A stretch of 60,950 bases of DNA, filler included, from Nemertoderma westbladi (Eukaryota > Animalia > Xenacoelomorpha), in the NCBI GenBank assembly GCA_032718475.1. It is 3 parts of 3 records of this genome, joined end to end, with 100 filler letters (N's around TTAATTAATTAA, not from the genome) between each part and the next. Parts side by side here need not be neighbours in the genome. Positions count along the whole stretch, not along the records: positions 25,507 to 52,268 come from JAUCBJ010003207.1; positions 52,369 to 60,950 come from JAUCBJ010002460.1; 1 more part is not named here. One strand, given 5' to 3'. Position numbers and translations under genes: made by a program. Under the pieces are notes generated by a model, which was not told the origin of the DNA, ran no database searches, and saw only the letters and a list, made by a program, of their open reading frames with translations. This document shows, piece by piece, positions 2,551 through 60,950 of this stretch (position 1 is the first letter of the stretch; every line of letters begins with the position of its first letter).

Positions 2551-2625
2551 CACCGTTCAGGTTTACCGGTTGACCGGTACTCCCAACTTTATTGCTTACT
2601 GCAATAAAGAAGCTATATCCGTTAT

Positions 2626-27484: not shown

Positions 27485-27728
27485 TGGGGTCGACTCGGCT
27501 CGCTGGACTCGACTCGGCTTGGTCCGGCTCAACTCGGTTCGATTCGGCTCGATCCTCTCGATTCGGCTTGATCGGCTTGACTCAGCTCGATCGGCTCGGT
27601 CTGGGTCGATTGGACTCAACTTGGTTGGACTCGGCTCAATTGGGCTCGACTCATCTCTATTGGGCTCGACTCGGCTCGATCGGCTCGGTACAGCTCGATT
27701 GGGCTCGATTGGTCTTGACTCGGTCTTG
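27485..27728. repeat. degenerate pentamer repeat (GGCTC/GACTC), probably a DNA-transposon subterminal region
   Basis: Runs of CTCGA/CTCGG/CTTGA follow TAGTGACAGGCC at about 27427. Confidence 0.7.
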
Positions 27729-30700
27729 ACTAACTAACAGTATCACATGTGTAAGTGGAGACTAACCATATCGCATGTGTAAGTGGAGACTAACTAACCG
27801 TATCGCATGTGTAAGTGGAGACTAACTAACCGTATCACATGTGTAAGTGGAGACTAACCGTATCGCATGTGTAAGTGGAGACTAACCGTATCGCATGTGT
27901 AAATGGAGACTAACTAACCGTATCACATGTGTAAGTGGAGACTAACTAACCGTATCGCATGTGTAAGTGGAGACTAACCATATCGCATGTGTAAGTGGAG
28001 ACTAACCGTATCGCATGTGTAAATGGAGACTAACTAACCGTATCGCATGTGTAAGTGGAGACAAACCGTATCGCATGTGTAAATGGAGACTAACTAACCG
28101 TATCGCATGTGTAAATGGAGACTAACTAACCGTATCGCATGTGTAAGTGGAGACTAACTAACCGTATCGCATGTGTAAGTGGAGACTAACTAACCGTATC
28201 GCATGTGTAAGTGGAGACTAACCGTATCACATGTGTAAGTGGAGACTAACTAACCGTATCGCATGTGTAAGTGGAGACTAACCGTATCGCATTTGTAAGT
28301 GGAGACTAACTAACCGTATCACATGTGTAAATGGAGACTAACTAACCGTATCGCATGTGTAAGTGGAGACTAACTAACCGTATCACATGTGTAAGTGGAG
28401 ACTAACCGTATCGCATGTGTAAGTGGAGACTAACCGTATCACATGTGTAAGTGGAGACTAACTAACCGTATCACATGTGTAAGTGGAGACTAACCGTATC
28501 GCATGTGTAAGTGGAGACTAACCGTATCACATGTGTAAGTGGAGACTAACCGTATCGCATTTGTAAGTGGAGACTAACTAACCGTATCACATGTGTAAAT
28601 GGAGACTAACTAACCGTATCGCATGTGTAAGTGGAGACTAACTAACCGTATCACATGTGTAAGTGGAGACTAACCGTATCGCATGTGTAAATGGAGACTA
28701 ACTAACCGTATCGCATGTGTAAATGGAGACTAACTAACCGTATCGCATGTGTAAGTGGAGACCAACTAACCTTATCACATGTGTAAATGGAGACTAACTA
28801 ACCGTATCGCATGTGTAAGTGGAGACTAACCGTATCGCATGTGTAAGTGGAGAATAACTAACCGTATCGCATGTGTAAGTGGAGACTAACTAACCGTATC
28901 GCATGTGTAAGTGGAGACTAACCGTATCACATGTGTAAATGGAGACTAACTAACCGTATCACATGTGTAAATGGAGACCAACTAACCGTATCACATGTGT
29001 CAATGGAGACTAACAACCGTATCGCATGTGTAAGTGGAGACTAACTAACCGTATCGCATGTGTAAATGGAGACTAACTAACCATATCGCATGTGTAAGTG
29101 GAGACTAACCGTATCGCATGTGTAAGTGGAGACTAACTAACCGTATCGCATGTGTAAGTGGAGACTAACCGTATCACATGTGTAAATGGAGATTAACTAA
29201 CCGTATCACATGTGTAAGTGGAGACTAACTAACCGTATCGCATGTGTAAGTGGAGACTAACTAACCGTATCGCATGTGTAAGTGGAGACTAACTAACCGT
29301 ATCGCATGTGTAAATGGAGACTAACTAACCGTATCGCATGTGTAAGTGGAGACTAACTAACCGTATCGCATGTGTAAGTGGAGACTAACCGTATCGTATG
29401 TGTAAGTGGAGACTAACCGTATCGTATGTGTAAGTGGAGACTAACTAACCGTATCGCATGTGTAAGTGGAGACTAACTAACCGTATCACATGTGTAAATG
29501 GAGACTAACTAACCGTATCACATGTGTAAATGGAGACTAACCGTATCGTATGTGTAAGTGGAGACTAACCGTATCGCATGTGTAAGTGGAGACTAACTAA
29601 CCGTATCGCATGTGTAAATGGAGACTAACTAACCGTATCGCATGTGTGAGTGGAGACTAACTAACCGTATCGCATGTGTAAGTGGAGACTAACTAACCGT
29701 ATCACATGTGTAAGTGGAGACTAACCGTATCGCATGTGTAAGTGGAGACTAACTAACCGTATCGCATGTGTAAGTGGAGACTAACTAACCGTATCACATG
29801 TGTAAATGGAGACTGTCAATGTAGACATTTTGTCCTGAGCCCAGAAAGACCGGCTTTGGAATCTCGGTGTTTTCAGTCTTTAGCCCAACATTAGTAGGCT
29901 TAATTATAGAACGTATATCTGTTAACTCACAAACAAACCAATTCATATCACATATCAATCAAACTTAACTTAACATTTTACTGCTATTTACTGTCGGTTA
30001 TTCATTATATCTGTTGATGGAATATTATATTTGGAATACTGATAAATAATCAGACACCCCAATCTTCTTGATATACTGAAGGTTAGAGAGACCGGTTACA
30101 TATAACGATTGCGACTTACATTAAAGTGGTTTGAAGTGAATCAAATGCTATTTCATAAGCACTACATGTACCGTCTGTTGTTCTCTTTATATGTGACTAA
30201 AATTAGTGAAGGTCGGCAGATCAGTGTGCAGCATTGCGCAGTATTGTGTATGATTGTGACTGATAACAAAGCATCTCCTAAAGAATGCGCCATATACGTG
30301 AATCTATAGCCATCCCGTTGTGTTTAGTTTAAGTCATAACTCTGTTTACATATTTAGAACGCCACGTCCTAAAGGAACTGTTAATATTTCCAGAAAGTGA
30401 ATAATATTTGTCAGAGATTATATATTACGATCAATCGAATAATACAGTAGGCCTACCCCGCAATACGGTTAGGCTTCCGAATCCAGTCTCCCGGGTATAT
30501 CCAGCGGGTGAATGATCGCGCATAGACTGGCTTCGGCTAATGTAGTGTATCAAATACTTGTCATAGGCTAAAGACGATCTATTATCTAAAAGACATCCCA
30601 ATTTGGCAGGTTAAACTGCTAAAGGTCTGAAAGCGCGAACACTAACCGTATCGCATGTGTAAGTGGAGACTAACTAACCGTATCGCATGTGTAAGTGGAG

Positions 30701-31997
30701 ACTAACTAACCGTATCGCATGTGTAAGTGGAGACTAACTAACCGTATCGCATGTGTAAATGGAGACTAACTAACCGTATCGCATGTGTAAGTGGAGACTA
30801 ACCGTATCGCATGTGTAAGTGGAGACTAACTAACCGTATCGCATGTGTAAGTGGAGACTAACTAACCGTATCGCATGTGTAAATGGAGACTAACTAACCG
30901 TATCGCATGTGTAAGTGGAGACTAACTAACCGTATCGCATGTGTAAATGGAGACTAACGGTATCGCATGTGTAAATGGAGACTAACTAACCGTATCGCAT
31001 GTGTAAGTGGAGACTAACTAACCGTATCGCATGTGTAAGTGGAGACTAACTAACCGTATCGCATGTGTAAGTGGAGACTAACTAACCGTATCGCATGTGT
31101 AAATGGAGACTAACTAACCGTATCGCATGTGTAAGTGGAGACTAACTAACCGTATCACATGTGTAAGTGGAGACTAACTAACCGTATCGCATGTGTAAGT
31201 GGAGACTAACTAACCGTATCGCATGTGTAAGTGGAGACTAACTAACCGTATCGCATGTGTAAATGGAGACTAACCGTATCGCATGTGTAAATGGAGACTA
31301 ACTAACCGTATCGCATGTGTAAGTGGAGACTAACTAACCGTATCGCATGTGTAAGTGGAGACTAACTAACCGTATCGCATGTGTAAATGGAGACTAACCG
31401 TATCGCATGTGTAAATGGAGACTAACTAACCGTATCGCATGTGTAAGTGGAGACTAACTAACCGTATCGCATGTGTAAATGGAGACTAACCGTATCGCAT
31501 GTGTAAGTGGAGACTAACTAACCGTATCGCATGTGTAAGTGGAGACTAACCGTATCGCATGTGTAAGTGGAGACTAACTAACCGTATCGCATGTGTAAAT
31601 GGAGACTAACTAACCGTATCGCATGTGTAAATGGAGACTAACTAACCGTATCGCATGTGTAAGTGGAGACTAACCGTATCGCATGTGTAAGTGGAGACTA
31701 ACCGTATCGCATGTGTAAGTGGAGACTAACTAACCGTATCGCATGTGTAAGTGGAGACTAACCGTATCGCATGTGTAAGTGGAGACTAACTAACCGTATC
31801 GCATGTGTAAATGGAGACTAACTAACCGTATCGCATGTGTAAGTGGAGACTAACCGTATCGCATGTGTAAGTGGAGACTAACCGTATCGCATGTGTAAGT
31901 GGAGACTAACTAACCGTATCACATGTGTAAGTGGAGACTAACCGTATCGCATGTGTAAATGGAGACTAACTAACCGTATCGCATGTGTAAGTGGAGA
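27728..31997 (-). repeat. 28/32-bp intronic satellite made of the WDR24 exon end plus 5' splice site, about 110 copies
   Basis: Minus-strand unit CTCCACTTACACATGCGATACG+GTTAGT(TAGT). The first copy is the coding end (STYTCDT) of the WDR24 exon. An insertion at 29814-30641 interrupts the array. Confidence 0.95.
29814..30641 (-). mobile_element. 828-bp TG...CA insertion in the satellite (putative solo LTR)
   Basis: Unique sequence with sharp edges in the array, bounded by TG and CA and homologous to 2626-3475. There is no canonical 4-6 bp TSD. Confidence 0.7.
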
Positions 31998-32868
31998 GCG
32001 ACGAACAATACTCTGTGTTGAATCCATCCGACTCGGGTTTACTTCTCCTGTTGAACATCATTGGTCGTTGTGATTGGGCGTATTGGGGCTTCTGTAGGAC
32101 AACGCCCCCAAGCGGCGGCTGCAAGGATCGACGCGAGCTGTCGGACGACCCGGTCGCTAGGGCGACTGCGTCCCCTCGGGAGTTCACGCTGAGTCCGACA
32201 GGGGGCGCCATCTCGGCGGTGCGGATCCCGTCTACGCGGCAGTTGAGACGGGCGATGGAGGAATCCTTGGAGACGGTGAGTAAAGTCATCCCCTCGGAGT
32301 CCTGTCGCCACCAAGAGAAGTCTGTGGTAACGTCCTTGTGGTTGTGGAAGGATTGGATGGGGATGTAAGGACGTTTAATATCCCAGATATTCACGGTAAA
32401 GTCGATAAGGAGGGAGGAAGTGGTTAGCTGTCTGGCGAATCCCGGACGCCACTTAACGCGAGCCACCGAGGCTATCGTCTGTATGGTCTGCTTCTCCCGG
32501 ATAGGGGAGACCCCGAGGTCCCAGACCTTGACGAGTTTGTCTCGACCGCCGGTGGCTAGGAGACCGTTGGCTACGTCCAGCGCGAACACTGGCCCCGTGT
32601 GGGCCGTAAAGTCCCACTGTCGTCGGTCCGGGGACCGCAGACTCCATTGCTCCACGGTTCCGTTCTCCAACGCGACGATAAACTCCCGGTTCACGAACAT
32701 TACGTCGCGAACGCGTTCCCCCACGTGGAACGTCTGAACCGAGAGTTTTTCTCGCAGGTCGAACAGCTTCACGAGGCCGTCGTGAGCGCCGCTCAGTAGG
32801 ACGTGGTGCTCGTCGTTATGGAAACGGATACGGTTCACGGTCTGCGCGTGTTCGCTGTACACCGTGTC
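31975..32868 (-). CDS. WDR24: GATOR2 subunit WDR24, second visible coding exon (the gene's 3' part was not found)
   Basis: Acceptor TTTTAG|GAC and donor ACG|GTTAGT, 894 nt, phase 0/0. WD40 repeats LLSGAHDG, FTAHTGPVF, LATGGRDK, QTIASVARVKWRP and IWDIKRPYIP. Confidence 0.9.
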
Positions 32869-33093
32869 CTAAAAGCAAACAACTTAGATTTAATAACAAC
32901 ACCAGTACCGGTATTTCGATTAAGAACCCAGGGTGATAAGGGGAAATCGACGCATAAAATCAGCTGGTTTAGAGAAATATCACATAACCTTTGCTATCAC
33001 GTAACCTTTGCTACTGACTCTCAATTTATTGTTTTGGTTAGAATAGCCAGCATATTACTGGTACGAGCTATTATAATTACCATGGATACCAAC

Positions 33094-33393
33094 CTGTTTA
33101 TTACGGGCTCCCTTCTGCAGGTTCCACAATACAACGGAACCATTAGTAGCTGCGCTAGCTATAACATTCTCATCGAATGGGTTCCAAGCCACATCGGTGG
33201 AACTGTAAGTGAGATTTAGATTCCTCCCAACACGAAGGTTGGCTATCTCTTTAAATTCGCTGTCCTCCACACTGTAGACTTTGAATAGATTGCGACCAAC
33301 AGTGGCAACTCTAAGTCCAATAGGAAGGTCTTTAAGATCCCGCGATGGCGAAAGGGATAACGCGCTGACTGGGAAACCAACGGACGCAGACAT
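33094..33393 (-). CDS. WDR24: WDR24 first visible coding exon
   Basis: NLRVGRNLNLTYSSTDVAWN...ASAATNGSVVLWNL...RNKQ, donor CAG|GTTGGT, splices in frame to 32868. A small upstream exon is possible. Confidence 0.88.
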
Positions 33394-35361
33394 TGTTGTA
33401 GCATTAGTTACAAAGCGAGTCTATCCGCTAGTACTTTATACAGTGTCTAACAACACTCCAACTCCACTAACTCCAGTAGTACCACCCCGCAGTGCCGAAA
33501 TGTTTTTAATACAGTTAATTATTAAAGTACATCACATCAGATCATCATCATCAAATTATAACGTACCTCTCTAGCCTACAGTTGTTATACTAGGCTAATT
33601 AACTTGGAAGAACTCGGAACTGGGGTGATTATGAGAAACAACACAGCATACACTGAGTAGGGATTATTGTGTTGTTGGAAATATGTTGCAATGCTTTATT
33701 AATACACTCATTATTGATTAAGATTTATGGTCAACAACATACAATGTAATATCATATGAGCTAGAGCTAGGTTACATTACACAATAAACATTGTGGGATC
33801 AGTACTGGTATTGGTATAATAATATGTAGGTTTAGCATAAGGTACTCTTACTCACTCATTCAGTATTATAGGCCTATCGCTTTCAACTAACTGCGTAATA
33901 TTTACAAGTTTTCATAAGATATTTTAGGCATTAATATAATATTGAAAAAAACAACAGAGACAGGCAGACAGACATGGAAATGAACTGTTTCAGTGTTCAG
34001 GGAATATCTGCGGCGTGTTTGAGGTTGTTTGTTGTGCCCCATTTAGTTTGCAAAACTGCATTTAATTTACTGAACGTTAGCGAGGTTAATTAAAAATTTG
34101 AATAATATAAGATGAGATGCATCGTTTTTATTTTATGAAGTTTGGTATCTAATACAATAGTAAACATAATAAGAACCTGTGTTCAGAAAAACGATTTTTA
34201 TTTTGATTCCAGAGGTAGTTCCTTGCCCAGACCACCGGTGTAAACATACTTAAAAGGATTAAAGGCGGGTAGCAGATCTGTGGGTGGTATCATTGGTCAA
34301 AATTGAGTTTATTGCCAATATTTCGGCCCAAACATGAAATTATATTGAAACAAATGAACAATATAAAACAAACAACAGGCCTTCAACAGGGCAGCTCGGT
34401 AATGCCTAACTACTGATTTTTATTTAGATGTACAATACTAATGTAGTACATATGTATATTTTGAAAGTTTTTGGTTTTATTGTTGAAATCTAATTGGTGG
34501 CCATAGTATTTGATAATTCAAGTCACCATTCCTGATAGTAATCAATAAAATTTGTTCTCGCTTCAAACTCCAAGAAACCATTACTTGGTTGCACCCAGGA
34601 TTGCACATTTACAACAACTTCTCTTCTGTTGTGTAACAGTAGGTTTGCCCATTACTATATTATACATTATCAGTAGATATGGGGGGGCACACCCATAACC
34701 AAACGAATACAAATATATGCAGGCTAAGCAAACTTACAGTAGATGCCACTCCCATATATAATAATAGAGAGCTGCCTCTCCCCAAGTCAATTAATTAGTA
34801 TGTATTCTTACGAACCTCAATACATTTAACAATATTAGTTTCCGTAGACGAGGCTAGCGATTCCTAATGACATACCATTTCTTTTCCATTATTTTGATGA
34901 ATGCCAACTGAAATTTCCATAGGCCAAAGCAGGGAATTATATTATTATACTGTAATACATAAAAGGATTTTCATTTATCACAGCATTATGCTTGTCTTTC
35001 TACATTATGGAGGATAATTATTTTAATAGTATACCTACAGTATTCTTAAAGAAACCAATATCAGAAGAGACCAAGAGAAATACGATAGAAATACAAATCG
35101 TTTCAAATGTAACAATAATGTATATTGGACTTTGAAATTCTCCAAAATAGTAATTAGACATTATTAATCAAACAGGATTATTAAACACTATGAATCATCG
35201 CTCCTTCCACCGCGAGGGACCGGAATGTACAGTATTGTACTAGAGTAGGCTCTGTGGTGAGTATGTTGGGCATGTTATAGATAATATTAATAAATTTGTA
35301 TATTGTTTATAATACACGAACTCGAATTTGTTACAAACTGTATGAAACATTCATATCATTC

Positions 35362-36576
35362 ATGGGACGACTGCTCAATTTTCCAATTGATGTCCCGGGG
35401 CCAGCAACATTCCTATCCCGTTACGCTGGGTTTCTCGGCTGGTTGCCATGGTTTTTGAGACGATGGATACTTGTGAACAAGGCGAAACCGAGTCAGAGAC
35501 CGGACGATGTTCAAGATGTGTTGGGGAACGATCCCTATAAAATAGATGAGATCGTTCATGGTAAAGTTTGGAAGATTGCCTACGAGTACGCGGATAACCT
35601 CGTAGCCCATCGCAGTCGACTCAAGTTCGTCGACTTTTCTTCTGAAGAATCAATCAATGCCATATTAGCTGAGGCCGCAAAAGATGGTAGAGAGTCCCAC
35701 GCCCAAGCTACAGAAGATATTGAAAGGATGAAAGAAGTCAACAATTTATCACCTGAGGAGGTCCATGCCGGTGGATACGTTAAAGCGGCGAGCAAGAACA
35801 TCAACATGTATGTTGTTAAACTAACATCCGGTGACGTCATATTGTACTGCCCAGTTCACATTCACAGGAATTCCACCTTGTCCAACTTCCTGGATAAACT
35901 GGGCCCCGTTAGGTGGATAATCATTGGCTCATCCTACCACACTCTCTTCCTGCCTTCCGCTATGAAAACCTTTCCAGAAGCGATGGTTGTTGGGGCAACA
36001 GGAGCCGAGCTTAAGCTGAAGGCGGTATCGGCTTTCATCCGCGGCAAATTGGATTATGATGTCACTAAATCGGAGGATAGATGCCACCTAGCGGATAAGT
36101 TTGATGTCAATGAGCTGGAGTTGCTGTTCATCGCCGGGGATGTGTTCAGCCAGGCGATCATCGTTCGTGCGTCCAACGCTCTCCTCGAGGCCGATGTCAT
36201 CTACTCACACCATCCAGGCTGCACCTGCGTCGCCTGCAACCTGCCAATCACCTCCTTCCCCACTTGGAATATTCGTCTACGTCTGTGGACCTTTCGCTCC
36301 AACGAAGTCACTCATCCCGATTACGGTCTTCCCTACTACCGCTTCAGCCTAATGAACCCCGACAGCGTTTTGTACAACATGCTGATAACGCCGCCTCATG
36401 ATGGTGTTAACATCCTCGCTGCTATGGCGGGCTCATTGCGAACGGCTTTAGCGTCGTCCGTGGATGTCGTATGCTCCGTCCACAGCTCGATTCTAACTCC
36501 CGACGATTACAAGAAGAGTGTGGATCGCAACTGGTACTGGTTGGACGGAAAGTCACTACTTAATCAGAATGACTAA
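35362..36576 (+). CDS. DUF4336-like (metallo-beta-lactamase-like fold) protein, single exon
   Basis: Long ORF with first ATG at 35362. MYVVKLTSGDVILYCPV...LDKLGPVRWII..SSYHTLFL.....FPEA resembles the DUF4336 N-terminal motif. The family call is from recall. Confidence 0.65.
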   Translation: MGRLLNFPIDVPGPATFLSRYAGFLGWLPWFLRRWILVNKAKPSQRPDDVQDVLGNDPYKIDEIVHGKVWKIAYEYADNLVAHRSRLKFVDFSSEESINAILAEAAKDGRESHAQATEDIERMKEVNNLSPEEVHAGGYVKAASKNINMYVVKLTSGDVILYCPVHIHRNSTLSNFLDKLGPVRWIIIGSSYHTLFLPSAMKTFPEAMVVGATGAELKLKAVSAFIRGKLDYDVTKSEDRCHLADKFDVNELELLFIAGDVFSQAIIVRASNALLEADVIYSHHPGCTCVACNLPITSFPTWNIRLRLWTFRSNEVTHPDYGLPYYRFSLMNPDSVLYNMLITPPHDGVNILAAMAGSLRTALASSVDVVCSVHSSILTPDDYKKSVDRNWYWLDGKSLLNQND

Positions 36577-36779: not shown

Positions 36780-36905
36780 TATTATTGGTGTTATAGGTGA
36801 ATGAGTGGTTTCATATTGTTATAACTTTTTGTTAGGCACAGCTTTTGCAAAGTCGGCAATGACGTCCAGGTGGGATCGAACTGGTGACCTCCGGGTTTGA
36901 GCAAC
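36780..36905 (-). mobile_element. possible tRNA-derived SINE fragment
   Basis: Minus-strand AAACCCGGAGGTCACCAGTTCGATCCCACCTGGACG looks like a tRNA 3' half with a B-box. No 5' half is present and the boundaries are uncertain. Confidence 0.4.
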
Positions 36906-38286: not shown

Positions 38287-38694
38287 AATTTAACCTAATT
38301 TACATTCTTTATGGTGTAATAATTAATATATTTCGCGAAGATTTGACAGCAGCAAAAATATCACCATTATAACAGTTTTAACAACCTGATTGGTAGATAG
38401 CGTACTTTGGTCTCTAGGTCCTGTTCCTGCGTCTTTAGATGCAGTGATGTTTTTCTAAAAATGTTGATTAAAACTACACAACTTAAACTGAAACCTGTGC
38501 AATTGACACCGTTTATTGTTTTGGTTAGAATAATATTCTGTCGCAGCACATAATGGCGCAGTACGACCAAAGGAGCTAACGACGCAGAACCGTTTGTAGC
38601 TGACAGTTCCAATCATACAGTTGGTGACTTAGAGATTAGGAATTAACACGAATCCCATATCTCCAACCCCATTTACATTTGAACAAAGGTAGTT

Positions 38695-41600
38695 GTGGTT
38701 GTAACCCAACGGGAGGATACAACTATGGATGTAACCCAACAAGAGGATACAACTATGGATGTAACCCAACAAGAGGATACAGCTATGGATGTAAACCGCC
38801 CAGCTAGAGGATACAGCTATGGATGTAACCCAACAAGAGGATACAGCTATGGATGTAACCCAACAAGAGGATACAACTATGGATGTTACCCAACAAGAGG
38901 ATACAGCTATGGATGTATACCGCCCAACAAGAGGATACAGCTATGGATGTAACCCAACAAGAGGATACAGCTATGGATGTAACCCAACAAGAGGATACAG
39001 CTATGGATGTAACCCAACAAGAGGATACAACTATGGATGTAACCCAACAAGAGGATACAACTATGGATGTAACCCAACAAGAGGATACAACTATGGATGT
39101 CACCAAACAAGAGGATACAACTATGGATGTAACCCGCCAAACAAGAGGATACAACTATGGATGTAACCCGCCCAACAAGAGGATACAACTATGGATGTAA
39201 CCCAACAAGAGGATACAGCTATGGATGTAACCCAACAATAGGATACAACTATGGATGTAACCAAACAAGAGGATACAACTATGGATGTAACCCGCCCAAC
39301 AAGAGGATACAACTATGGATGTAACCCAACAAGAGGATACAACTATTTGATGTAACCCAACAAGAGGATACAACTATGGATGTAACCCATCCAACAAGAG
39401 GATACAACTATTTGATGTAACCCAACAAGAGGATACAACTATGGATGTAAACCGCCCAGCAAGAGGATACAGCTATGGATGTAACCCAACAAGAGGATAC
39501 AGCTATGGATGTAACCCAACAAGAGGATACAACTATGGATGTAACCCAACAAGAGGATACAGCTATGGATGTAACCCATCCAACTCCAACAAGAGGATAC
39601 AACTATGGATGTAACCCATCCAACAAGAGGATACAACTATGGATGTAACCCATCCAACAAGAGGATACAACTATGGATGTAACCCAACAAGAGGATACAG
39701 CTATGGATGTAACCCAACAAGAGGATACAACTATGGATGTAACCCATCCAACTCCAACAAGAGGATACAACTATGGATGTAACCCATCCAACAAGAGGAT
39801 ACAACTATGGATGTAACCCATCCAACAAGAGGATACAACTATGGATGTAACCCGCCCAACAAGAGGATACAACTATGGTTGTAACCCAACAAGAAGATAC
39901 AGCTATGGATGTAACCCAACAAGAGGATACAGCTATGGATGTAACCCGCCCAACGAGAGGATACAACTATGGATGCAACCCAACAAGAGGATACAGCTAT
40001 GGATGTAACCCAACAAGAGGATACAGCTATGGATGTAACCCAACAAGAGGATACAGCTATGGATGTAACCCATCCAACAAGAGGATACAACTATGGATGT
40101 AAACCGCCCAACAAAAGGATACAACTATGGATGTAGACCGCCCAACAAGAGGATACAACTATGGATGTAACCCAACAAGAGGATACAGCTATGGATGTAA
40201 CCCGCCCAACAAGAGGATAAAACTATGGATGTAACCCAACAAGAGGATACAACTATGGATGTAACCCAACAAGAGGATACAACTATGGATGTAACCCAAC
40301 AAGAGGACACATCTATGGATGTAACCCGCCCAACAAGTGGATACAGCTATGGATGTAACCCAACAAGAGGATACAACTATGGATGTAACCCAACAAGAGG
40401 ATACAACTATGGATGTAACCCAACAAGAGGATACAACTATGGATGTAACCCAACAAGAGGATACATCTATGGATGTAACCCGCCCAACAAGTGGATACAA
40501 CTATGGATGTAACCCAACAAGAGGATACAACTATGGATGTAACCCAACAAGAGGATACAACTATGGATGTAACCCATCCAACTCCAACAAGAGGATACAA
40601 CTATGGATGTAACCCATCCAACAAGAGGATATAACTATGGATGTAACCCATCCAACAAGAGGATACAACTATGGTTGTAACCCAACAAGAAGATACAGCT
40701 ATGGATGTAACCCAACAAGAGGATACAGCTATGGATGTAACCCGCCCAACGAGAGGATACAACTATGGATGCAACCCAACAAGAGGATACAGCTATGGAT
40801 GTAACCCAACAAGAGGATACAACTATGGATGTAAACCGCCCAACAAGAGGATACAACTATGGATGTAAACCGCCCAACAAGAGGATACAACTATGGATGT
40901 AACCCAACAAGAGGATACAGCTATGGATGTAACCCGCCCAACAAGAGGATAAAACTATGGATGTAACCCAACAAGAGGATACAACTATGGATGTAACCCA
41001 ACAAGAGGATACAACTATGGATGTAACCCAACAAGAGGACACATCTATGGATGTAACCCGCCCAACAAGTGGATACAGCTATGTATGTAACCCAACAAGA
41101 GGATACAACTATGGATGTAACCCAACAAGAGGATACAACTATGGATGTAACCCAACAAGAGGATACAACTATGGATGTAACCCAACAAGAGGATACATCT
41201 ATGGATGTAACCCGCCCAACAAGTGGATACAACTATGGATGTAACCCAACAAGAGGATACAACTATGGATGTAACCCAACAAGAGGATACATCTATGGAT
41301 GTAAACCGCCCAACAAGAGGATACAACTATGGATGTAACCCAACAAGAGGACACATCTATGGATGTAACCCGCCCAACAAGTGGATACAGCTATGGATGT
41401 AACCCAACAAGAGGATACAACTATGGATGTAACCCAACAAGAGGATACAACTATGGATGTAACCCAACAAGAGGATACAACTATGGATGTAACCCAACAA
41501 GAGGATACATCTATGGATGTAACCCGCCCAACAAGTGGATACAACTATGGATGTAACCCAACAAGAGGATACAACCCAACAAGAGGATACATCTATGGAT

Positions 41601-42055
41601 GTAAACCGCCCAACAAGAGGATACAACTATGGATTTAACCCGCCCAACAAGTGGATACAACTATGGATGTAACCCAACAAGAGGATACAACTATGGATGT
41701 AACCCAACAAGAGGATACATCTATGGATGTAAACCGCCCAACAAGAGGATACAACTATGGATTTAACCAACCCAACAAGTGGATACAACTATGGATGTAA
41801 CCCAACAAGAGGATACAACTATGGATGTAACCCAACAAGAGGATACAGCTATGGATGTAACCCAACAAGAGGATACAACTATGGATGTAACCCAACAAGA
41901 GGATACAACTATGGATGTAACCCAACAAGAGGATACATCTATGGATGTAAACCGCCCAACAAGAGGATACAACTATGGATTTAACCCACCCAACAAGTGG
42001 ATACAACTATGGATGTAACCCAACAAAGGATACAATTAACCCATCAAGAGGATAC
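38695..42055. repeat. 30/34-bp minisatellite, about 3.3 kb, with higher-order duplications
   Basis: Unit GGATACA(A/G)CTATGGATGTAACCCAACAAGA with +4 (CGCC/ATCC) variants. Variant patterns recur at a 732-bp offset (40125 vs 40857). Confidence 0.97.
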
Positions 42056-45652: not shown

Positions 45653-46666
45653 ATTCTGATAGTGTTTCGATGACTTTATGCAGCAGCACACACAGTGATC
45701 ACCACAGACAAAATAATCAGCCAGTCAGCCTGAATCGCTGTCTGAATCTATAATCAGATAGTGTATATATATCTGTACATAAGATTAGATATTGAGGTAG
45801 AGCAGAATGCGATTTTAGCTCATATGCTTCACCTCAATAAACTATCTTTAACTCCCTCAATTTATTGTCAATCGGTCTAGATGGTTGATGTAGGCCTAAA
45901 TAACAGCAGAATAACCTTAATATAATAAACGTAACAACTTTCTATCTGTCTGCTTTATATTTTTATTTTTTTGATTATTTTTGTGAATCATAACAATCAA
46001 TTTTTATTGTGAATATTTTATTGCACATAGCTTACTGTTTACTGTACCCTTGTATTTATTTGATTTTATATTTTCAGCACTGCTTCTGTCTATTCTACTG
46101 CACCGTTTTATGCTTTTTTATTTTTGAATGTAAATATGATATCTTTATTCACTGCACCAAATTTATTTATTATTTTTTTTTTATAAATTTTCAGAAATTC
46201 GTAGACTATGACATTGTTGCGTTAATTTTAATTTTATTTTGTAGAATATATTTCTGTATTTTTGTGTAATTTTAGAGCCTGCTCGGGCAACCATAAGTGT
46301 TTAATTTTTAATAACCTGGTTGTTTTCTCTCCTCATGTACTTTTAATTTAATTTTTATAAATACATAGAGTGATAATAATAATAAATAAATAAAATATCT
46401 TTATCTACCATTCTACCGTATTATGTTTTTTTACTTTAATCTGTTAATTATTCATTACTTTGAATGGTCAATATTATGAATTCGTATTATCTTACAGGGC
46501 CAACTGGTTGTTATAATAGTTGCAAGAAGAATGTACTGATGAATGAATGTACTGAAGGCTATTGTTGTATTGTATGAAAGGGTAAAATTGGTTTCAGTAT
46601 ACCCACTTGCTACTTGGCAATTTTTGTAGTTCCAAAACCCGTTGATTTTCTGATGTTACTCTACTG

Positions 46667-46971: not shown

Positions 46972-47232
46972 TACCCCAGTTTACCCTAATCATACAACTG
47001 CACCAACTGAGGGCCTTACTCTAGGCCTACTAAATCTGATGTAAATGTACAATAACTACAGAACTAATACGGTACCGGTAATAAAGGCTTTACTACAGTA
47101 CAGCAGTACTCTGGTACTGCCTGACTGCAGTACTGCTATAAAACTGTAAAAGTACTGAAGTAATACTGTAATACTCCTTGGTACTGTCTGACTGTGGCAA
47201 TAGGCCTACTATCTGACTGTAATACATGTAAT

Positions 47233-49766
47233 ACACCATGGATACCGCATAATATATTAAAATGTATCAAGAAAAAAGACAGATTTTACCACGATTACCT
47301 CATCCATAAAAATGAAAAAGCCAAAGAAAAATTTGTGAAATATCGCGATGCACTGAAGACAATCATTCGAAGGTCTAAAATTAATTATTTTAATAACGCC
47401 ATGGACAGTAAAACTCTAACAGTGAAACAAATATGGCAATCTATAAATCAACTAATTAACCGCAAAGTCAACAAAACATCTGGGCCGACTTTAATTCATC
47501 ATGATTCCCGTACTGCCACGGAACCCAAAACGATTGCTACCTCCATGAATCAGTATTATTCTCGTGTAGCTTTTAATCTTGACAAAGAGATACCAATAGT
47601 CGAAGGTAATCCCATTGATTATTTATCACCAATTAAATTTCCCAATTATCATCTAGATGAATTTAATAGTGTTTCATGTTCTGATATTAAAACAATAGTT
47701 TTGGATTTTGATTCAAAGGCCAGCCCCGGTCATGATGGTATCCGTGGTAAAATTGTCCAGAACTCATTACAGCCGATCCTATTACCTCTAACATATATTA
47801 TTAATTGCTCTCTCCGCACCGGTATTGTACCAGACAGTCTGAAAATTGCACGAGTTGTTCCAATTTTTAAATGTGATGACCCCACGATTCCTAAAAACTA
47901 TAGACCAATATCGGTCTTACCATTCTTCTCTAAGATTTTCGAAAAAGTTGTTGCTAAACAACTTCTAAAATATGTCACCCACCAGGTAATTATATCGCCA
48001 TCACAATTTGGGTTTCAGGCAAACATATCAACGCAATTAGCATTATTAACACTTGTAGACAAAATTACATCATCCCTTGAAAAGAAACAATCAACATTAG
48101 CACTCTCAATAGACCTATCAAAGGCATTTGACACGGTTAACCATGCAATTCTATTAAGCAAAATGGAACACTATGGAATAAAAGGTGTTGCATTGGAATG
48201 GTTCCAAAGTTACTTGTTCCAACGTAAACAATATGTAGCCATTGACAATATTTGTTCCGAACAAAAAATTATCCAGTGCGGGGTGCCCCAGGGGTCCATT
48301 CTAGGTCCTCTGCTTTTCCTCCTATACTGCAACGACATAACCAATGTCTCCAAAATATTTAGTTTTGTTTTATTTGCGGACGACACCAGCATAGTTAACT
48401 CTAGTAATAATATTGATAACCTGATTGCCAGTACGAACTCTGAATTACAAAATCTCCAAAAATGGTTTTGTGTCAATCGCCTATCCTTGAATATCAGCAA
48501 AACAAACTATATTATCTTCAATACAAGCAACCGGATCATCAGTCCATCAACTCCAATTCACATTAATAACATTGACATTACTCGAGTAAAGGTGGCCAAA
48601 TTCCTTGGTGTACACATAGATGAGCGTCTAAACTGGAAGTACCATCTACACCAAATAAGTATGAAGATTAGTAAAAATATAGGTGTTATAAACAAGGTAA
48701 AATCATTTATGACTACAGAATCTTTAGCAGCTCTATACTACGCAATGGTCCATCCATACTTAAGTTACTGTACGGTAGTTTGGGGTAAATCAATAACGGA
48801 CAATACTGAACAACTAGTACCCAGTTACACCAGATCAAAATTTAGACATAGAAGGAGGAGGAGGCGAAAAGTTTATGATGTTGTTTCAATAACAAACATT
48901 TTTAAATTGCACAAACACCAACAGAAAATTATTTCAATAATTCAACATCGCGATCTTAATTTTTCACCACCTACACTTAATCACATTTTTACTCAACAAG
49001 TAGCTATCCTCTCCTTTAAGTCTATCCGTAATATAACCCCCCATGGGATATTGCCGGACCTATTAACACCCGTTTCAAATGTACACACCCATGAGACAAG
49101 ATCCTCACAATCTCAAAATGCGTTCCGTCTACGAAATAGGCTAAAAATCCGAACTCAATCTATTTACGCTCTAGCACCAGTAATTTGGAATGGTCTACCT
49201 CTTGCAGTGCGACAGTCTAGCGGATTATTACAATTTAAGTACAAATTAAATAATTTCTTAAGGGGTACTACTATAACTACAACGTAAGTATCAATTTCAC
49301 TTGTTTTCTATAATTATTTCGCTAGTTATTGTTATCATTTAGTTATTATAATTTTCACTTGTTTTCTATATTCTGCTAGTTATTGTTATTCTATTGAGAA
49401 CAACCCGTATCAATAATAAATTTAAACATATTAATGTACGTATTATAATTAGTTTTGTTGCAACAGTAAGCTTTTTGTAGGCCCATTTTAAGAATTGTAT
49501 AAGGTTTTTTTTTTCTCTACTGTATGTATATTGTTTGTTTGTTTAAACTGGTGTCTGAAATAATGGGATTCTCCGTGCAGGCACCAGCCACGCAAATCTA
49601 ATCCAATTATTTTAAATTCACAATGTAATTAAATACTATATTATTAATAATAATAGCTTGTTTCTATCAGTTCATATTATTGTGTTGTGCATGCATTATT
49701 ATATCATTTAATATCAATATTTGTGTGGGAATAGTTTAATAAAAGTTAAAGTTAAAGTTAAAGTTA
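47233..49766 (+). mobile_element. 5'-truncated CR1/L2-group LINE with an open RT frame
   Basis: ORF to 49287 with TPWI, SPGHDG, NYRPIS, QFGF, DLSKAFD, GVPQGSILGPLLF, FADD and FLGV. The 3' UTR ends in AATAAA plus (AAAGTT)4. Confidence 0.93.
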
Positions 49767-52268: not shown

Positions 52269-52368
52269 NNNNNNNNNNNNNNNNNNNNNNNNNNNNNNNN
52301 NNNNNNNNNNNNTTAATTAATTAANNNNNNNNNNNNNNNNNNNNNNNNNNNNNNNNNNNNNNNNNNNN
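52269..52368. other. scaffold gap with artificial TTAATTAATTAA spacer
   Basis: N runs flank the spacer. Confidence 0.97.
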
Positions 52369-53717
52369 CTGCTTTCTCAGCCGTAGTTTGCTCACTCCAA
52401 CGGGAGTGGGCATACCTCCAACGCGTTGTCCCAGACTGCAGCAGTCAGTTCGATGTGCTAGAGGAAGCGATCAGCGATAGGTTCCTGCCGGCAGTCTTCG
52501 ATGGGCGAATTTCGCAACCAGAACTCAAGTTGTTTGCCCTGTCTCCGCGAATGGGTGGTCTGGGGTTGCGGAACCCGGTTAACGAGGCCGATACCAACTT
52601 TGCTGTATCAGAACTTGGGACACAGTCGCTGGTGAACGCGATCGCCGGGAAGGAGCCATTCTCCTTAGCCACCCACCTGAAGTGCATGGAGGGAGCGCGC
52701 ATGACATCTCGGAAAGAGAGGCAGGGTATGGAGAAAGCCCAGCAGGAGGAAGCGTTGGAAGGAATGGCGGAGCACCAGCGTGTCGCTGTCCAACGGGCGG
52801 CGGAGTTCAGGACCGGCGGCTGGCTATCCTCTCTTCCGGTAGCCGAACACCAGTTTGACCTCTCACCCCGGGAGTTTAGGGACGCTGTGGCTGTCCGGTA
52901 TGGTAGACCCCTCGTAGGTGTCCCTAGCAGATGCGACGGTTGTGGCGCTGGGTTTGATCTCAACCACGGGTTGAATTGTAAGAAGGGTGGTCTAGTGATT
53001 CAGCGTCACAACGAGCTCCGCGACGCAGTCGGTGACCTCGCGGACATGGCATTCGGACCGCGAAACGTTATGCTCGAGCCAGTGGTCCGCGAGCAGCACG
53101 AGGATGGCGACGGGGCTGGTCTGCGATGCGATGTCGGCATTAGGGGAGCGTTCAGTACCCAGACACAGGCGTTGATTGACATACGTACAATTAACCTTGA
53201 CGCCGTGTCTTATGCTGGGCGCTCCGTGAGGTCGGTATTGGAGTCGGCGGAAGAGGAGAAGAAACGCTTATATACAGCCGCAGTTTCCGCCCGCCGAGGT
53301 GATTTCTCCCCTTTCGTCGCCTCATGCGACGGCATACTGGCACCGCAGGCCAATAAGCTGTTGCGAATCATCGCAGACCGCCTACACACCAACTGGGGGA
53401 AACCATACAGTTCGGTAATGGGGTGGGTGCGCGCACGCATATCGTTCGCGATAATCCGCGGCACTTCCCATTGCCTGCGAGGGTCGCGGGTGAGATGGCG
53501 AAGTGGTTTGGGGCTTGAGGACGGCGCCGGGATACCAGGGGGCTTTGCTTAGAGTGTTTGATCGATTATGCGGGGACTGGTATGGTATATTACATAATTA
53601 TTGCCCATTGTAACTGTGTAATGGAGTTGTTACCATCTGTACTGCATGCAATATGCTATTGATCATTTAGTGCGTTTTTGCGAAAATTATAATATACATA
53701 TAAAAAAAAAAAAAAAA
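52369..53717 (+). mobile_element. CRE-clade non-LTR retrotransposon 3' end (zinc knuckle plus restriction-like endonuclease) with poly(A) tail
   Basis: GC-rich frame open to 53552: GGLGL, CDGCG...H..NCKKGG...RHNELRD, RCD, DIR, AEEEKKRLY, FSPFVASCDG. A short 3' UTR and poly(A) at 53702-53717 follow. Confidence 0.85.
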
Positions 53718-54186: not shown

Positions 54187-54355
54187 CTGAGAACCAAGGA
54201 AATCGATCACTTTGCTAGTAAATTCGGTTGGGTTGTCTAACGTAAATGTTGGTTGTTCGTTATAAATGCGAACGTAAACATCGCCAATTACCAACTCCGT
54301 AGAATGTACGGTAAACACGAAGTCCGACCCATACGACGAGTCGCATTCTCCCGTT
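54187..54355 (-). CDS. DNAJC13: DNAJC13/RME-8 exon (last visible)
   Basis: Acceptor TTTTAG|A and donor CAG|GTAAAT. Encodes TGECDSSYGSDFVF...ELVIGDVYVRIYNEQPTF...DFLGSQ. Confidence 0.9.
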
Positions 54356-54513: not shown

Positions 54514-56465
54514 TTTATCATATCGGCCTGTTGTTTCTCCACATACTCCAGCAGTTCAGCTCGCGTTTCATTATCCCATATAAGGTAAGGATTCTCTGTG
54601 TTGCTGTTCAACAGTTTCAGTATATCCATGCTGCTCACCGTGGAGTTGGTCATCTGTTTGCAGACGAACCGCGTGAGTAACGCATTGAGACTCTTACGGA
54701 CGGTCGCGTTCTCCGGAGTCGCGGTCCCGTTGTTGTCGTGGTAACCAGCCAACCGGGACAGCGCGCGGATACTGAGTTTAGCGAGTTGATTCGCCACTTC
54801 CTGCTGGTTGGACTCGGCGCTCCTCTCCACGCCGCCCTCCTCCAGGGTGTAATCGTAGTTGAAGAGGAAGAGGAGGATATGCCAGATGATTCCGGCGAGG
54901 AACAGATGGTTCTGGAGGTAGTAGTCGACGGAGAGTGCGGAAGCGCAGTGGACGACTTCGCAACAGACGTTGGAAAGATTCCGGAAGTAGAGGATCCGAC
55001 AGAGATCGCGAATAATCACGGGGAGTTCCACGATGCGTTCCCGACACGGCCCGAATTGCGCCGCCACGGTGTAGCACTGCGCCACGTGGAAGCAGACGAG
55101 AGCCGGAGTATCGGAACCTCGACTCGATAAGCCGAGCACGTCGACGCATCGAGCCAATGCCCGTTGCAACGTCTCCACTCCGCACTCGCGTCGCATCTCT
55201 TCCGCGTTCAGCGCCGAACAGTCGACCGTGTGGTAGGCGAGCTGCACCGCCGCGGGGAGAATGTCCACCGGTTTGTTGAATAAACAATCGTCTTTGGTTT
55301 CCGAGTCGATGGTGGTGATTAACATTGGGTAACCCGCGTACTTATACGGGGAAAGAACCTCCGAACATCGGGTAAATAAGATACTCTGAGAGCGAAGTAA
55401 CAGTTTAATATTCTCCGGTTTCGGTCCGATATTCCGCGAGCTGGCTTTACTGCAGAGGAAGTCGTAGGCTTTATTGACCGCTTCGAAAATCTCCCGACCT
55501 TCAGGGTTCTTGTCGGGATGGTATTTCTGCGCCATACGGAAGTATGCGTGACGTAATTCGTTGTCGGGGTAACCCCCGGGTTTGGGGGTCAGGTTGAGCG
55601 CGGCGTGTGCTTCGTCCCAGCTAAGCGACGGGGGTTTCCTGTCTACCTCCTCCCGCCACGCCTCCAGGATGTCCTTGAGCAGACGAACCGGCTCCTCCAG
55701 CGGCCAGTCCGGGAACCGAGTCTCGTCGCACAGATGCCGCAGATAGTAGATGTTGACGAACAACTCGTCCTCCAGCTGGGGGTAGCTCACCGCCGGGATC
55801 GGGCAGAACTGGTACACCGATTGGCTGTTGCTCAGCAACCGGGGCGTGAAGTCCGCGATGTGGGTGGCTATCTTCTCGATCATCAACCTCCGCATCTCCG
55901 CGCTCCAGATCGCCTCGGGGGTGTCGAACTCCCCGAGGAACGTTCCCGCGAAGCGTTCCGCCCCGTGGTTGACCAGGTAGTAGACCATGGCCTCGGGGAG
56001 GATGGAACCCAGCACGGAACGGCCGTCGGTGGGGTCCTCGGAGCGGAACGCTTGCACCGAGTGGGAGCGCTGGAGGAACCGGGCGATCGGCAGGAGGTTG
56101 GATCCCGTGTACATAAGGATGAAGAAGAATACACCGGTGACGTAGAGACGGGGCAGCACCGGGTTGTCCTCCATGATCTTGTCGAGGAGGATGGCGACCT
56201 TCTCGACGATCATAGGGTCGAAGGTTAGAAGGAGTTGGACGACATGGGGGAGGCAGAAAGCGTCGGAGAGGAGCCGTTTAATCCGGGGAAGTGGTCGGAT
56301 AATGGCGCCCTCCTCGTCTCTACTCGGGTAGAAGTCCGTCATGGTGTTTAGCGTATTGAGTATGAGGACGGCGATGTCGGATTCGTTGAGAACCGGCGAG
56401 GATGTGGCAACCAGAGTCCATCGGAGCTGCGGAATAAACTGCAGTTGTTTCCAACCGTCCATTCC
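54514..56465 (-). CDS. DNAJC13: DNAJC13/RME-8 large exon with J domain
   Basis: Acceptor TGTAG|GGA and donor AA|GTAAGT (phase 2). Contains [36 protein letters not shown] and [15 protein letters not shown]. Confidence 0.95.
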
Positions 56466-56811
56466 CTACAAAATTCGTATAATAAAAAAAGGGAAAGGTA
56501 CAATATATATTGTAATATCCGACCAACGGGATATCCGAAAGACCGGAATATACAACTTTTCAATATAAATAACGTAAAGACCAACCGCTCGCTAAGCTAA
56601 AATGTAATTTAAAAGTCGCAACTGTAATTATAAAATTAGTATAAAATATCTTCGGTCGGAAATGTCCTATGCTGGATCCGGAAAATTCAAATTCCGACCA
56701 ATAAAGACAAGTAATTGTTTTTAAAAGTTGATTGGACGGAACAGTCCTGGTCGGAATAGACCGTCCGACTAACCTGCGCGACTGCGCGACGAACCGGAAT
56801 ACCAGACTAAC

Positions 56812-57384
56812 CTGCGCCCATATTTGAGTTTTCGCGTTTATCGATTCCTCCTCGAACATTTCCTTAATATCCTGGAAACTATAGGGTCCGAGTTTATCGC
56901 GCTGTTTATTAAATATAAAGAATTCCTTCTGCGAGTGCCGGAAGTTGTCCCCGCCCGCCTCTATAGTGAGAGTCTGCAAGGGGACCGTCGCCCTGGTTAC
57001 GTGTAGGTGAGCCAATACGAGAAGGTTAATGAAGACCCGACAACAATTCGCGTCGATTAATTCCTTCACGTTCCGTCGATTTAACGCGAGTTTCGATATG
57101 AAGATAAGCAATCGATCCCGCTCTATTCGGTCGCTACTGCGTTCCAACATGGACACGATAAACCGGACGTCCGGGAAATTACCTATCTCGTCATGGCAAC
57201 GAGCGTAGACAATGGCCATGGCTTGGAGACAAAGACATCGCATAGTGAGTTTGGGAGTTTGTAGGAATCTGTGGTACAAATCGTTAAAGAATTCGTAGGG
57301 GCGTTTAATCGGGGAGCTGGATTCCTGGGAATTGGTGCTGTCCTCTTCCAATAAGAGTCGCAGGTAGTAATCACCTATTTTAAC
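56812..57384 (-). CDS. DNAJC13: DNAJC13/RME-8 exon (GYF_2 region)
   Basis: Acceptor TTTTAG|GTT and donor CAG|GTTAGT. Encodes KIGDYYLRLLL...FFNDLYHRFL...ERDRLL...TQIWAQ. Confidence 0.93.
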
Positions 57385-57634: not shown

Positions 57635-57805
57635 CTCATCAGAGAGACTATCATAAGTTACTTCGAATTCCTGGTGGTTCCACGACAGTAAATGTTTACT
57701 ACCGAGTTCCTTATCGGTTGAGAACGAACGGATCTCTAATTCCAGTCGTTCGCGAAGTTCCTCGCGGGTTTTATGGTTCCAGATGAGGTTAGATCGGGCG
57801 TGGTC
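57635..57805 (-). CDS. DNAJC13: DNAJC13/RME-8 exon (IWN repeat)
   Basis: Acceptor TTACAG|GAC and donor GAG|GTAGGG. Encodes [18 protein letters not shown]...SWNHQEFEV. Confidence 0.92.
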
Positions 57806-57969
57806 CTGTAAGGAAGGGACATTGGGTTAGATAGATAGTGGAGCGGTGCGGTATGAATCAATAACAACCAAAAATTACTCGCCCCGGATTTTGTTATCAA
57901 TGTAAATAACATTAAAAAGAAAAGCGACAAATAAAAGTAATTAGGTTTTGGGGAAGGTAACGAACTGAC

Positions 57970-58188
57970 CAGCTGGAAGTGATAATAGAATAATGGCCAA
58001 TTGAGTTCCGCTTTAATACGTTGTCTCCGTTTCCGCAATATGATTGGTTGTTCGTCGTCCCTTCTGCGAGTGTTTACCGACACGCCAATACGCGCCCCCC
58101 AGTGCTCCAACACTCTCTCCACCTGGCGCCATTGCGCCTCCACCTGTCGCCAATGGGAGGGCCCCCTCGTTGATTGCTCTTGGGCTGT
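57970..58188 (-). CDS. DNAJC13: DNAJC13/RME-8 exon (first visible)
   Basis: Acceptor TTTTATAG|ACA and donor CTG|GTCAGT. Encodes TAQEQ...PIILRKRRQRIKAELNWPLFYYHF. Confidence 0.9.
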
Positions 58189-58405
58189 CTATAAAATAAA
58201 CACATCCGACGTAAAGTTAGTAGCAACATTATTATAGTGTCTTATGCTATGGGGGCTGGTGAAATTAAATATCATTGTAGATTCTTACGATCGGTACTTT
58301 GAATGTAAATTTGACGTAAAATATGGAATTTACATTACATATAAATTTTAGCACTTTTAAATAATGAAATAATTGTACTTTGTAATTAATTATTGATTCT
58401 TAGTA

Positions 58406-60950
58406 TTCAGTAGTCACCTTGATGTTGTCTCTGGTGTTTAGTACTCGCCTTAAGGTTGTCTCTTTGTGTTCTGTTCAGTACTCACCTCGAGGTTGTCTCT
58501 GGTGTTCAGTACTCGCCTCGAGGTTGTCTCTGGTGTTCAGTACTCGCCTTAAGGTTGTCTCTGGTGTTTAGTACTCGCCTTAAGGTTGTCTCTGGTGTTC
58601 TGTTCAGTACTCTCCTCGAGGTTGTCTCTGGTGTTCAGTACTCTGCTTAAGGTTGTCTCTGGTGTTCAGTACTCGCCTTAAGGTTGTCTCTGGTGTTCAG
58701 TTCTCACCTCGAGGTTGTCACTGGTGTTTAGTACTCACCTTAAGGTTGTCTCTGGTGTTCTGTTCAGTACTCACCTCGAGGTTGTCTCTGGTGTTCAGTA
58801 CTCGCCTTAAGGTTGTCTCTGGTGTTCTGTTCAGTACTCTCCTCAAGGTTGTCTCTGGTGTTCAGTACTCGGCTTAAGGTTGTCTCTGGTGTTCAGTACT
58901 CGCCTTAGGGTTGTCTCTGGTGTTCAATTCTCACCTCGAGGTTGTCACTGGTGTTCAGTACTCACCTTAAGGTTGTCTCTGGTTTTCTGTTCAGTACTCA
59001 TCTCAAGGTTGTCTCTGGTGTTCAGTATTCGGCTTAAGGTTGTCTCTGGTGTTCAGTACTCGCCTTAAGGTTGTCTCTGGTGTTCAATTCTCACCTCGAG
59101 GTTGTCACTAGTGTTCAGTACTCACCTTAAGGTTGTCTCTGGTTTTCTGTTCAGTACTCACCTCGAGGTTGTCTCTGGTGTTCAGTCCTGGCCTTAAGGT
59201 TGTCTCTGGTGTTCAGTACTCGCCTTAAGGTTGACTTTGGTGTTCAGTACTCACCTCGAGGTTGTCACTGGTGTTCAGTACTCACCTTAAGGTTGTCTCT
59301 GGTTTTTTGTTCAGTACTCACCTCGAGGTTGTCTCTGGTGTTCCGTACTCGCCTTAAGGTTGTCTCTGGTGTTCTGTTCAGTACTCACCTCGAGGTTGTC
59401 TCTGGTGTTCAGTACTCGCCTTAAGGTTGTCTCTGGTGTTCTGTTCAGTACTCTCCTCGAGGTTGTCTCTGGTGTTCAGTACTCGGCTTAAGGTTGTCTC
59501 TGGTGTTCAGTACTCGCCTTAGGGTTGTCTCTGGTGTTCAATTCTCACCTCGAGGTTGTCACTGGTGTTCAGTACTCACCTTAAGGTTGTCTCTGGTTTT
59601 CTGTTCAGTACTCAACTCGAGGTTGTCTCTGGTGTTCAGTATTCGGCTTAAGGTTGTCTATGGTGTTCAGTACTCGCCTTAAGGTTGTCTCTGGTGTTCA
59701 ATTCTCACCTCGAGGTTGTCACTGGTGTTCAGTACTCACCTTAAGGTTGTCTCTGGTTTTCTGTTCAGTACTCACCTCGAGGTTGTCTCTGGTGTTCAGT
59801 ACTGGCCTTAAGGTTGTCTCTGGTGTTCAGTACTCGCCTTAAGGTTGTCTTTGGTGTTCAGTACTCACCTCGAGGTTGTCACTGGTGTTCAGTACTCACC
59901 TTAAGGTTGTCTCTGGTTTTTTGTTCAGTACTCACCTCGAGGTTGTCTCTGGTGTTCAGTACTCGCCTTAAGGTTGTCTCTGGTGTTCAGTACTCACCTC
60001 GAGGAGGTTGTCTCTGGTGTTCAGTACTCACCTTGAGGTTGTCTCTGGTGTTCAGTACTCACCTTAAGGTTGTCTCTGGTGTTCAGTACTCACCTCGAGG
60101 TTGTCTCTGGTGTTCAGTACTCACCTTGAGGTTGTCTCTCTGGTGTTCAGTACTCACCTTGAGGTTGTCTCTGGTGTTCAGTACTCACCTTAAGGTTGCT
60201 CTGGTGTTCTGTTTAGAACTCACCTTAAGGTTGTCTCTGGTGTTCAGTACTCACTTTGAGGTTGTCTCTGGTGTTCAGTACTCACCTTGAGGTTGTCTCT
60301 GGTGTTCAGTACTCATCGTAAGGTTGTCTCTGGTGTTCAGTACTCACCTTAAGGTTGTATCTGGTGTTCAGCACTCACCTTAAAGTTGTCTGTGGTGTTC
60401 AGTACTCACCTTAAGGTCGTCTCTGGTGTTCTGTTCAGTACTCACCTTAAGGTTGTCTCTGGTGTTCAGTACTCACCTTGAGGTTGTCTCTGGTGTTCAG
60501 TACTCATCGTAAGGTTGTCTCTGGTGTTCAGTACTCACCTTAAGGTTGTATCTGGTGTTCAGCACTCACCTTAAAGTTGTCTGTGGTGTTCAGTACTCAC
60601 CTTAAGGTCGTCTCTGGTGTTCTGTTCAGTACTCACCTTAAGGTTGTCTCTGGTGTTCAGTACTCATCGTAAGGTTGTCTCTGGTGTTCAGTACTCATCG
60701 TAAGGTTGTCTCTGGTGTTCAGTACTCACCTTAAGGTTGTATCTGGTGTTCAGCACTCACCTTAATGTTGTCTGTGGTGTTCAGTACTCACCTTAAGGTT
60801 GTCTCTGGTGTTCAGTACTCACCTTAAGGTTGTCTCTGGTGTTCTGTTCAGTACTCACCTTAAGGTTGTCTCTGGTGTTCAGTACTCATCGTAAGGTTGT
60901 CTCTGGTGTTCAGTACTCACCTTAAGGTTGTATCTGGTGTTCAGTACTCA
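58406..60950 (-). repeat. 31/36-bp intronic satellite matching the predicted DNAJC13 upstream exon end plus 5' splice site, about 80 copies, continuing beyond the window
   Basis: Minus-strand unit CTGAACACCAGAGACAACCTTAAG+GTGAGTA, which translates as LNTRDNLK followed by a consensus donor. Confidence 0.92.

Follow-up and report, generated by a model that had tools for sequence, protein, structure and literature searches.

Minisatellite arrays of an exon end and its 5' splice site in WDR24 and, by homology, in DNAJC13 of Nemertoderma westbladi

What does it mean when the end of an exon, together with the 5' splice site (donor) behind it, is repeated about a hundred times into the following intron? 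The question is raised by a stretch of 60,950 nucleotides (nt) from Nemertoderma westbladi (assembly GCA_032718475.1), all of which was analysed and is called the window below. A preliminary description had noted such arrays in two of its genes, here WDR24 (array A) and DNAJC13 (array D). We observe the exon-donor array directly in WDR24 and deduce it for DNAJC13 from protein homology. On balance, we think that the two minisatellites are neutral passengers, tolerated because the first donor is the one used.

The window holds three pieces of animal DNA joined by two identical 100-nt spacers, each made of 44 N, 12 nt (TTAATTAATTAA) and 44 N (25407-25506 and 52269-52368). WDR24 and DNAJC13 are its two genes with introns; both are on the minus strand, on different pieces, with the second spacer between those pieces. 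Their missing exons were not found across the spacers, so the pieces may not be neighbours in the genome. Tandem arrays were called with Tandem Repeats Finder (TRF) within the window, and contigs from three DNA runs of two samples (X1, X2 and X3) were placed on it. A fourth run, X4, is labelled 'DNA?'; we treated it as RNA because four GT-AG introns (three of DNAJC13, one of WDR24) are absent from its contigs. The genome appears prone to arrays, with 19 of them (period at least 19) taking up about 13.8 of the 61 kb.

The WDR24 array and its first donor

WDR24 exon 1 (33094-33583, minus strand; first ATG at 33393) was recognised by a hidden Markov model match to WDR24 homologues and by a spliced X4 contig. 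Exon 2 (31975-32868, minus strand), identified by the WDR24 profile and X4 contig 25, ends in TCDT at a phase-0 donor, ACG/GTTAGT (the slash marks the exon-intron border). In the alignment to the WDR24 profile this end (SSLSTYTCDT) is matched to sSalsvfese, and the last 23 nt of the exon (31975-31997) are the opening part of array A.

As called by TRF, array A spans 27728-31997 on the minus strand, of which 3,435 nt are repeat proper. An exon-proximal block of 32- or 28-nt units, each an exon end plus donor (30641-31997), is parted from a distal block (27728-29805) by an inserted dispersed repeat of about 835 nt (29806-30640), which is 81% identical over 838 nt to window positions 2621-3451. 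Neither copy of the dispersed repeat has a long open reading frame (ORF). The array holds 113 units, 110 of them full (74 of 32 nt, 35 of 28 nt and one of 31 nt), each reading on the minus strand as 23 nt of the exon 2 end followed by 9 or 5 nt of intron; in the first, the last 23 nt of exon 2 are followed by GTTAGTTAG. With just 21 distinct units, array A is young and has changed little anywhere along its length.

Which of these donors does the cell use? X4 contig 25 (2,855 nt) joins exons 1 and 2 and departs from the window at 31975, exactly at the first donor; a further 1,471 nt of the contig lie beyond. The window supplies 398 codons and the part past the junction up to 490, in keeping with a complete WDR24 of about 790 amino acids (aa). 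The depth of this contig in its bin is accounted for by the exon alone (bin sum 97,691 against 97,690), with none on intronic units. WDR24 splicing thus uses the first of about 110 donors, as seen in one contig of one run. No WDR24 exon past exon 2 was found in the window by tblastn with 94 WDR24 homologues or by a profile search.

A second array in DNAJC13

Five exons of DNAJC13 lie in the window, all on the minus strand, and together they form an open frame of 1,028 aa. The first, 57970-58188, follows the array-D intron, starts with TAQEQS in phase 0 and was placed by tblastn, outside X4 cover. Next come 57635-57805 and 56812-57384, each supported by tblastn, X4 contigs and the open frame, then a 1,952-nt exon (54514-56465) and the final exon within the window (54187-54355), both supported by tblastn and X4 contigs. 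The loose end of X4 after this final exon had 0 matches in the window. When the DNAJC13 part was placed in a FastTree phylogeny with 33 homologues, it formed a long branch in no supported clade, with identity of at most 64%.

Array D (58406-60950, minus strand; TRF and homology) lies upstream of these exons and is open at the window end, so that it contains at least 79 units. We count 81, of which 79 are full, including 60 of 31 nt and 15 of 36 nt. The unit consists of 24 nt that read as LNTRDNLK followed by GTGAGTA, with the donor GTGAGT; its exon share lies between 20 and 24 nt and cannot be fixed further, as the seed exon is past the window end. At the corresponding position, 102 of 120 DNAJC13 homologues carry RD(N/T)(L/V/M)(K/R), with (M/L/I)(H/N)(I/V) before it and xA after it; the other 18 do not match the pattern. 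None of 20,000 shuffled array D monomers reached the profile score of the real one (20.2; maximum 11.3), a comparison that tests the monomer and not the generality of the motif, since the homologues behind the profile had been chosen by that motif. These matches suggest that array D derives from a conserved DNAJC13 exon end and its donor. The units form ordered variant blocks whose divergence rises away from the exon, a pattern that fits ordinary minisatellite turnover.

TRF, the reading of individual units, the X4 contig for WDR24 and homology for DNAJC13 together bear out the core of the preliminary description: both arrays are real, and their units carry exon end and donor on the sense strand. 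The two monomers are also unrelated in sequence, as had been stated, with 147 of 300 shuffles scoring equally high. Neither intron is 'filled' by its array: 217 nt of non-repeat, AT-rich sequence separate array D from the DNAJC13 acceptor at 58189, and at least 2.2 kb of other sequence follows array A in the WDR24 intron. The shared unit size and shared phase are there to be seen and carry no information. Seven of the eight introns are in phase 0 (seven read directly, the array-D intron inferred), and unit sizes near 30 nt are frequent in the window (24, 30, 30, 34, 38 and 39 nt); we therefore rejected both as evidence. Finally, 14-mers of four array monomers occurred nowhere in the window outside their own arrays, which gives no sign of a transposon source.

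Known counterparts and competing explanations

Arrays A and D belong to a known class, the junction-spanning minisatellites of the F7 or 'mirage' type, at a larger scale. They have head-to-tail units of 28-36 nt and a reiterated splice signal; the first unit spans the border directly and with RNA support in WDR24, and by homology in DNAJC13; and WDR24 mRNA is made from the authentic first site (one contig, one run). The preliminary description regarded the precedents as isolated. Five human genes and several lancelet loci are already on record (PMC1557585, PMC3087553, PMC3902484).

The human examples listed in PMC1557585 are F7 intron 7 (37 bp, 5-9 copies), CBS intron 13 (15-20 units), LMNB2 (100 bp, 10-15 copies), PDGF intron 4 (81 bp, 16-18 copies) and the interferon-inducible gene 6-16 (25 pseudo-sites). 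As in both of our arrays (DNAJC13 by homology), the first unit crosses the exon-intron border, and copies of the donor run on into the intron. The upstream-most site is used in F7, LMNB2 and PDGF, as it is in WDR24, and for F7 the choice of the most upstream donor was shown by experiment (PMC1557585). The N. westbladi arrays differ in having 110 and at least 79 units, roughly 4 to 20 times more, in units that are mostly exon (the exon share in F7 is 4 of 37 nt), and in residing in an invertebrate, in two genes of one window, with many perfect-consensus donors in array D.

Lancelet mirages are described in PMC3087553 and PMC3902484 for Adh3, troponin C, the globins BflGb6 and BflGb9, and PGBD5; there they leave splicing undisturbed and their mechanism of origin is called unclear. 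Like our arrays, they are boundary repeats at several loci of one invertebrate genome with normal splicing, and the same papers report concerted evolution and divergent outer units, a further likeness to arrays A and D. Mirages occur at acceptors as well as donors (the acceptor type has long units, 150-160 bp in BflGb6) and their copy number in the globins is low (3-6 in BflGb6), whereas here we see donors only and kilobase arrays, in a host lineage far from lancelets. The internal tandem repeats of human segmental duplications likewise overlap exon-intron borders (PMC2812944); in young paralogues, those restructure genes or give rise to introns, whereas here the genes are conserved and no protein change was seen. 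The repeats treated in PMC10078293 modulate splicing and are not donor-spanning arrays. Our data thus add one more animal lineage, with higher copy numbers, to a curiosity already on record, and give RNA support for use of the first of about 110 donors. They also matter for assembly and annotation, as contigs are broken by such arrays at the very ends of exons.

How could arrays of this kind arise and persist as neutral passengers? A tandem duplication of about 30 nt would first, by chance, straddle a donor. A picture of such a seed may be preserved at the DNAJC13 donor 56811, where 6 exon and 7 intron nt are repeated exactly 38 nt into the intron (56752-56817, minus strand); the match can be extended with gaps, and the intron is confirmed by X4. 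Slippage and unequal exchange would then amplify the duplication, as the unit patterns suggest, giving higher-order blocks and allowing later insertion of a repeat, much as in the other arrays of this genome. Use of the most upstream donor, shown by the single run for WDR24 and suggested by analogy with F7 for DNAJC13, would leave the protein unchanged. Use of the second donor is predicted to bring a stop within 2 codons in WDR24 (32-nt unit) or 9 in DNAJC13 (31-nt unit), and hence nonsense-mediated decay (NMD). Provided that the first GT is used, a donor-straddling duplication would always leave copy 1 exonic and the others intronic. Short duplications at acceptors, judging from the scanning of 3' splice sites, should be less well tolerated, displacing the splice point in more cases. 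Selective filtering could therefore leave more arrays at donors with no donor-specific machinery. On this basis the arrays are likely harmless.

Several points weigh against this neutral account. By itself it predicts no excess at donors over bulk intron, yet two of the three arrays longer than 2.5 kb begin at one of the eight donors. A rough Poisson estimate puts P at 0.0015 if 14 arrays are counted and, by hand, at about 0.003 if 19 are, for a window that was selected after the fact. The 36-nt units, 15 of 79 in array D, are in frame. Twenty-nine array D units are perfect consensus donors (MAG/GTRAGT), and it was the perfect sites that competed in the F7 study (PMC1557585). RNA comes from a single run in the form of contigs, in which rare forms are lost, and later donors may see minor use; past the WDR24 junction, the fit of the X4 contig is one of length. 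The array-D junction of DNAJC13 falls in a stretch of zero X4 cover (57838-58405), leaving X4 uninformative on its splicing.

The donor excess would follow if a mutational bias at 5' splice sites seeded or sped up duplications, making donors hot spots in this lineage while the arrays stay neutral. We regard this as a possible but rather unlikely explanation; candidate causes are pausing of U1 or of the polymerase, R-loops, and the compositional step between a GC-rich exon and an AT-rich intron. GC content is 0.54 in exons and 0.35 in short introns, with eight measured arrays at 0.40-0.57, which agrees with such a step. An array or echo is found at three of eight donors and none of six acceptors by a count over the window, a difference that is not significant in a tiny sample whose window was chosen after the fact from a large scan. 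The echo, which was absent from the original finding, offers an independent case. Its 13-nt exact match is at a level reached by 15 of 4,796 non-array GT sites, and the remaining five donors and all six acceptors have repeat matches of at most 6 nt. One in six remaining donors against that null corresponds to a chance of about 2% (hand arithmetic), with a null that left out tandem arrays. Arrays B and C and a 68-mer array, which have no recognised donor, speak against a bias towards donors; B and C even lie within 27728-60950, the span over which donor-linked amplification had been claimed. Of that claim, the direction from exon into intron stands, and the local counts weakly support its recurrence.

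It seems to us doubtful that, in an intron-poor, repeat-rich animal, tandem duplication truly has mutational hot spots at 5' splice sites, with a large share of its donors bearing an echo or a kilobase array. If it did, satellites would be written into the genome by splicing-coupled events, and the choice of the first donor by the spliceosome would have a natural test bed in arrays that hold up to 100 near-identical donors. A genome-wide donor excess, if true, would point to an undescribed link between splicing and the birth of repeats; our literature search, with most subscription papers outside its reach, found no genome-wide test of array excess at donors. A donor-linked bias, unlikely as it is, may be the part of the finding most worth genome-wide attention.

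The preliminary description also proposed that the arrays are maintained by selection, their U1 sites acting as decoys that tune splicing and NMD or as protection from premature polyadenylation in long, repeat-rich introns. GT is indeed kept in all 112 array A units examined (located by motif), the 29 perfect donors of array D would suit such a role, and both introns seem long. In an array as young as A, however, intact GT says little. In array D, GT is among the most altered positions: it is intact in 47 of 79 units and lost in 32, and survives in 29 of 38 units near the exon against 16 of 39 far from it. The per-site change is 0.24 at GT and 0.058 elsewhere in the unit. The units cannot be taken as independent, however, and when each distinct type of substitution is counted once, the excess at GT shrinks to 5 of 32 (P about 0.10). 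The pattern shows a lack of conservation, not selection against donors. X4 gives no hint that later donors are used, and a literature search for decoy or telescripting donor arrays gave no match. We consider selection for decoy sites very improbable.

An assembly artefact, or arrays in broken gene copies, is largely refuted and deserves hardly any credence. Exact copy numbers do depend on one assembly, and both genes are cut at spacers or the window end. In the DNA runs, however, contigs from two samples break at identical places at both array edges: the unique contigs of X1, X2 and X3 all stop at 31968, 30 nt into array A, and they end 48 nt past 58405, within the distal edge of array D. Summed depth on array A is about 32, 43 and 63 times that of the flank in X1-X3, values that are indicative, as depth is not copy number and varies even where one sample was sequenced in two runs. 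Further arguments for genuine arrays are the open frames and spliced contigs of both genes, the ordered unit variants and the inserted repeat. Equally remote is the idea that tandem duplication made the introns, as proposed in the work on lancelet mirages (PMC3087553/PMC3902484) and human internal repeats (PMC2812944), since the DNAJC13 acceptor at 58189 falls outside the units, in the non-repeat AT-rich sequence, and the conserved downstream residues are not encoded by the intronic part of the array D unit; the WDR24 acceptor lies beyond the window.

Other features of the window

Array B (38696-42035; 30 nt, 106 copies, 3.3 kb) has no recognised exon at either end, and X4 cover at its left edge is zero. 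Array C (42882-43651; 24 nt, 32 copies, 0.77 kb) has a plus-strand open frame of GATRKAIT repeats, a possible AG in front of it, and ends exactly at CAG/GTAAAA; it may be an exon-internal expansion up to the donor of an unrecognised gene. A Pfam scan of 59 segments (48 of the 76 listed from the flanks of arrays A, B and C, plus 11 long ORFs) found no exon tying array B or C to a gene. Two Pfam matches on the array C frame contained 0 passing stretches and were taken as repeat artefacts.

From their Pfam families, we take the window also to contain GADD45GIP1-like (8023-8781), SDHD-like (12655-13206), POLR1C-like (17551-18615), DUF4336-like (35281-36576) and endosulfine-like (45062-45724) genes. 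Each is one uninterrupted frame; together with the 1,952-nt DNAJC13 exon, these five genes point to an intron-poor animal genome.

Retroelement frames of the RVT_1 family occur at 47164-49287 and 22565-23296, with further probable retroelement material continuing from the latter up to 24000 and at 20281-21129 and 52371-53552. A very high-copy short element at 36844-36900, which has tRNA-like loose ends and whose depth sums to tens of thousands in X1-X3, is likely a short interspersed nuclear element. A motif of about 20 nt is common to WDR24 intron 1 (33025-33047), the left of array B (38506-38530) and the 68-nt array (11108-12009), and is probably the end of a dispersed element.

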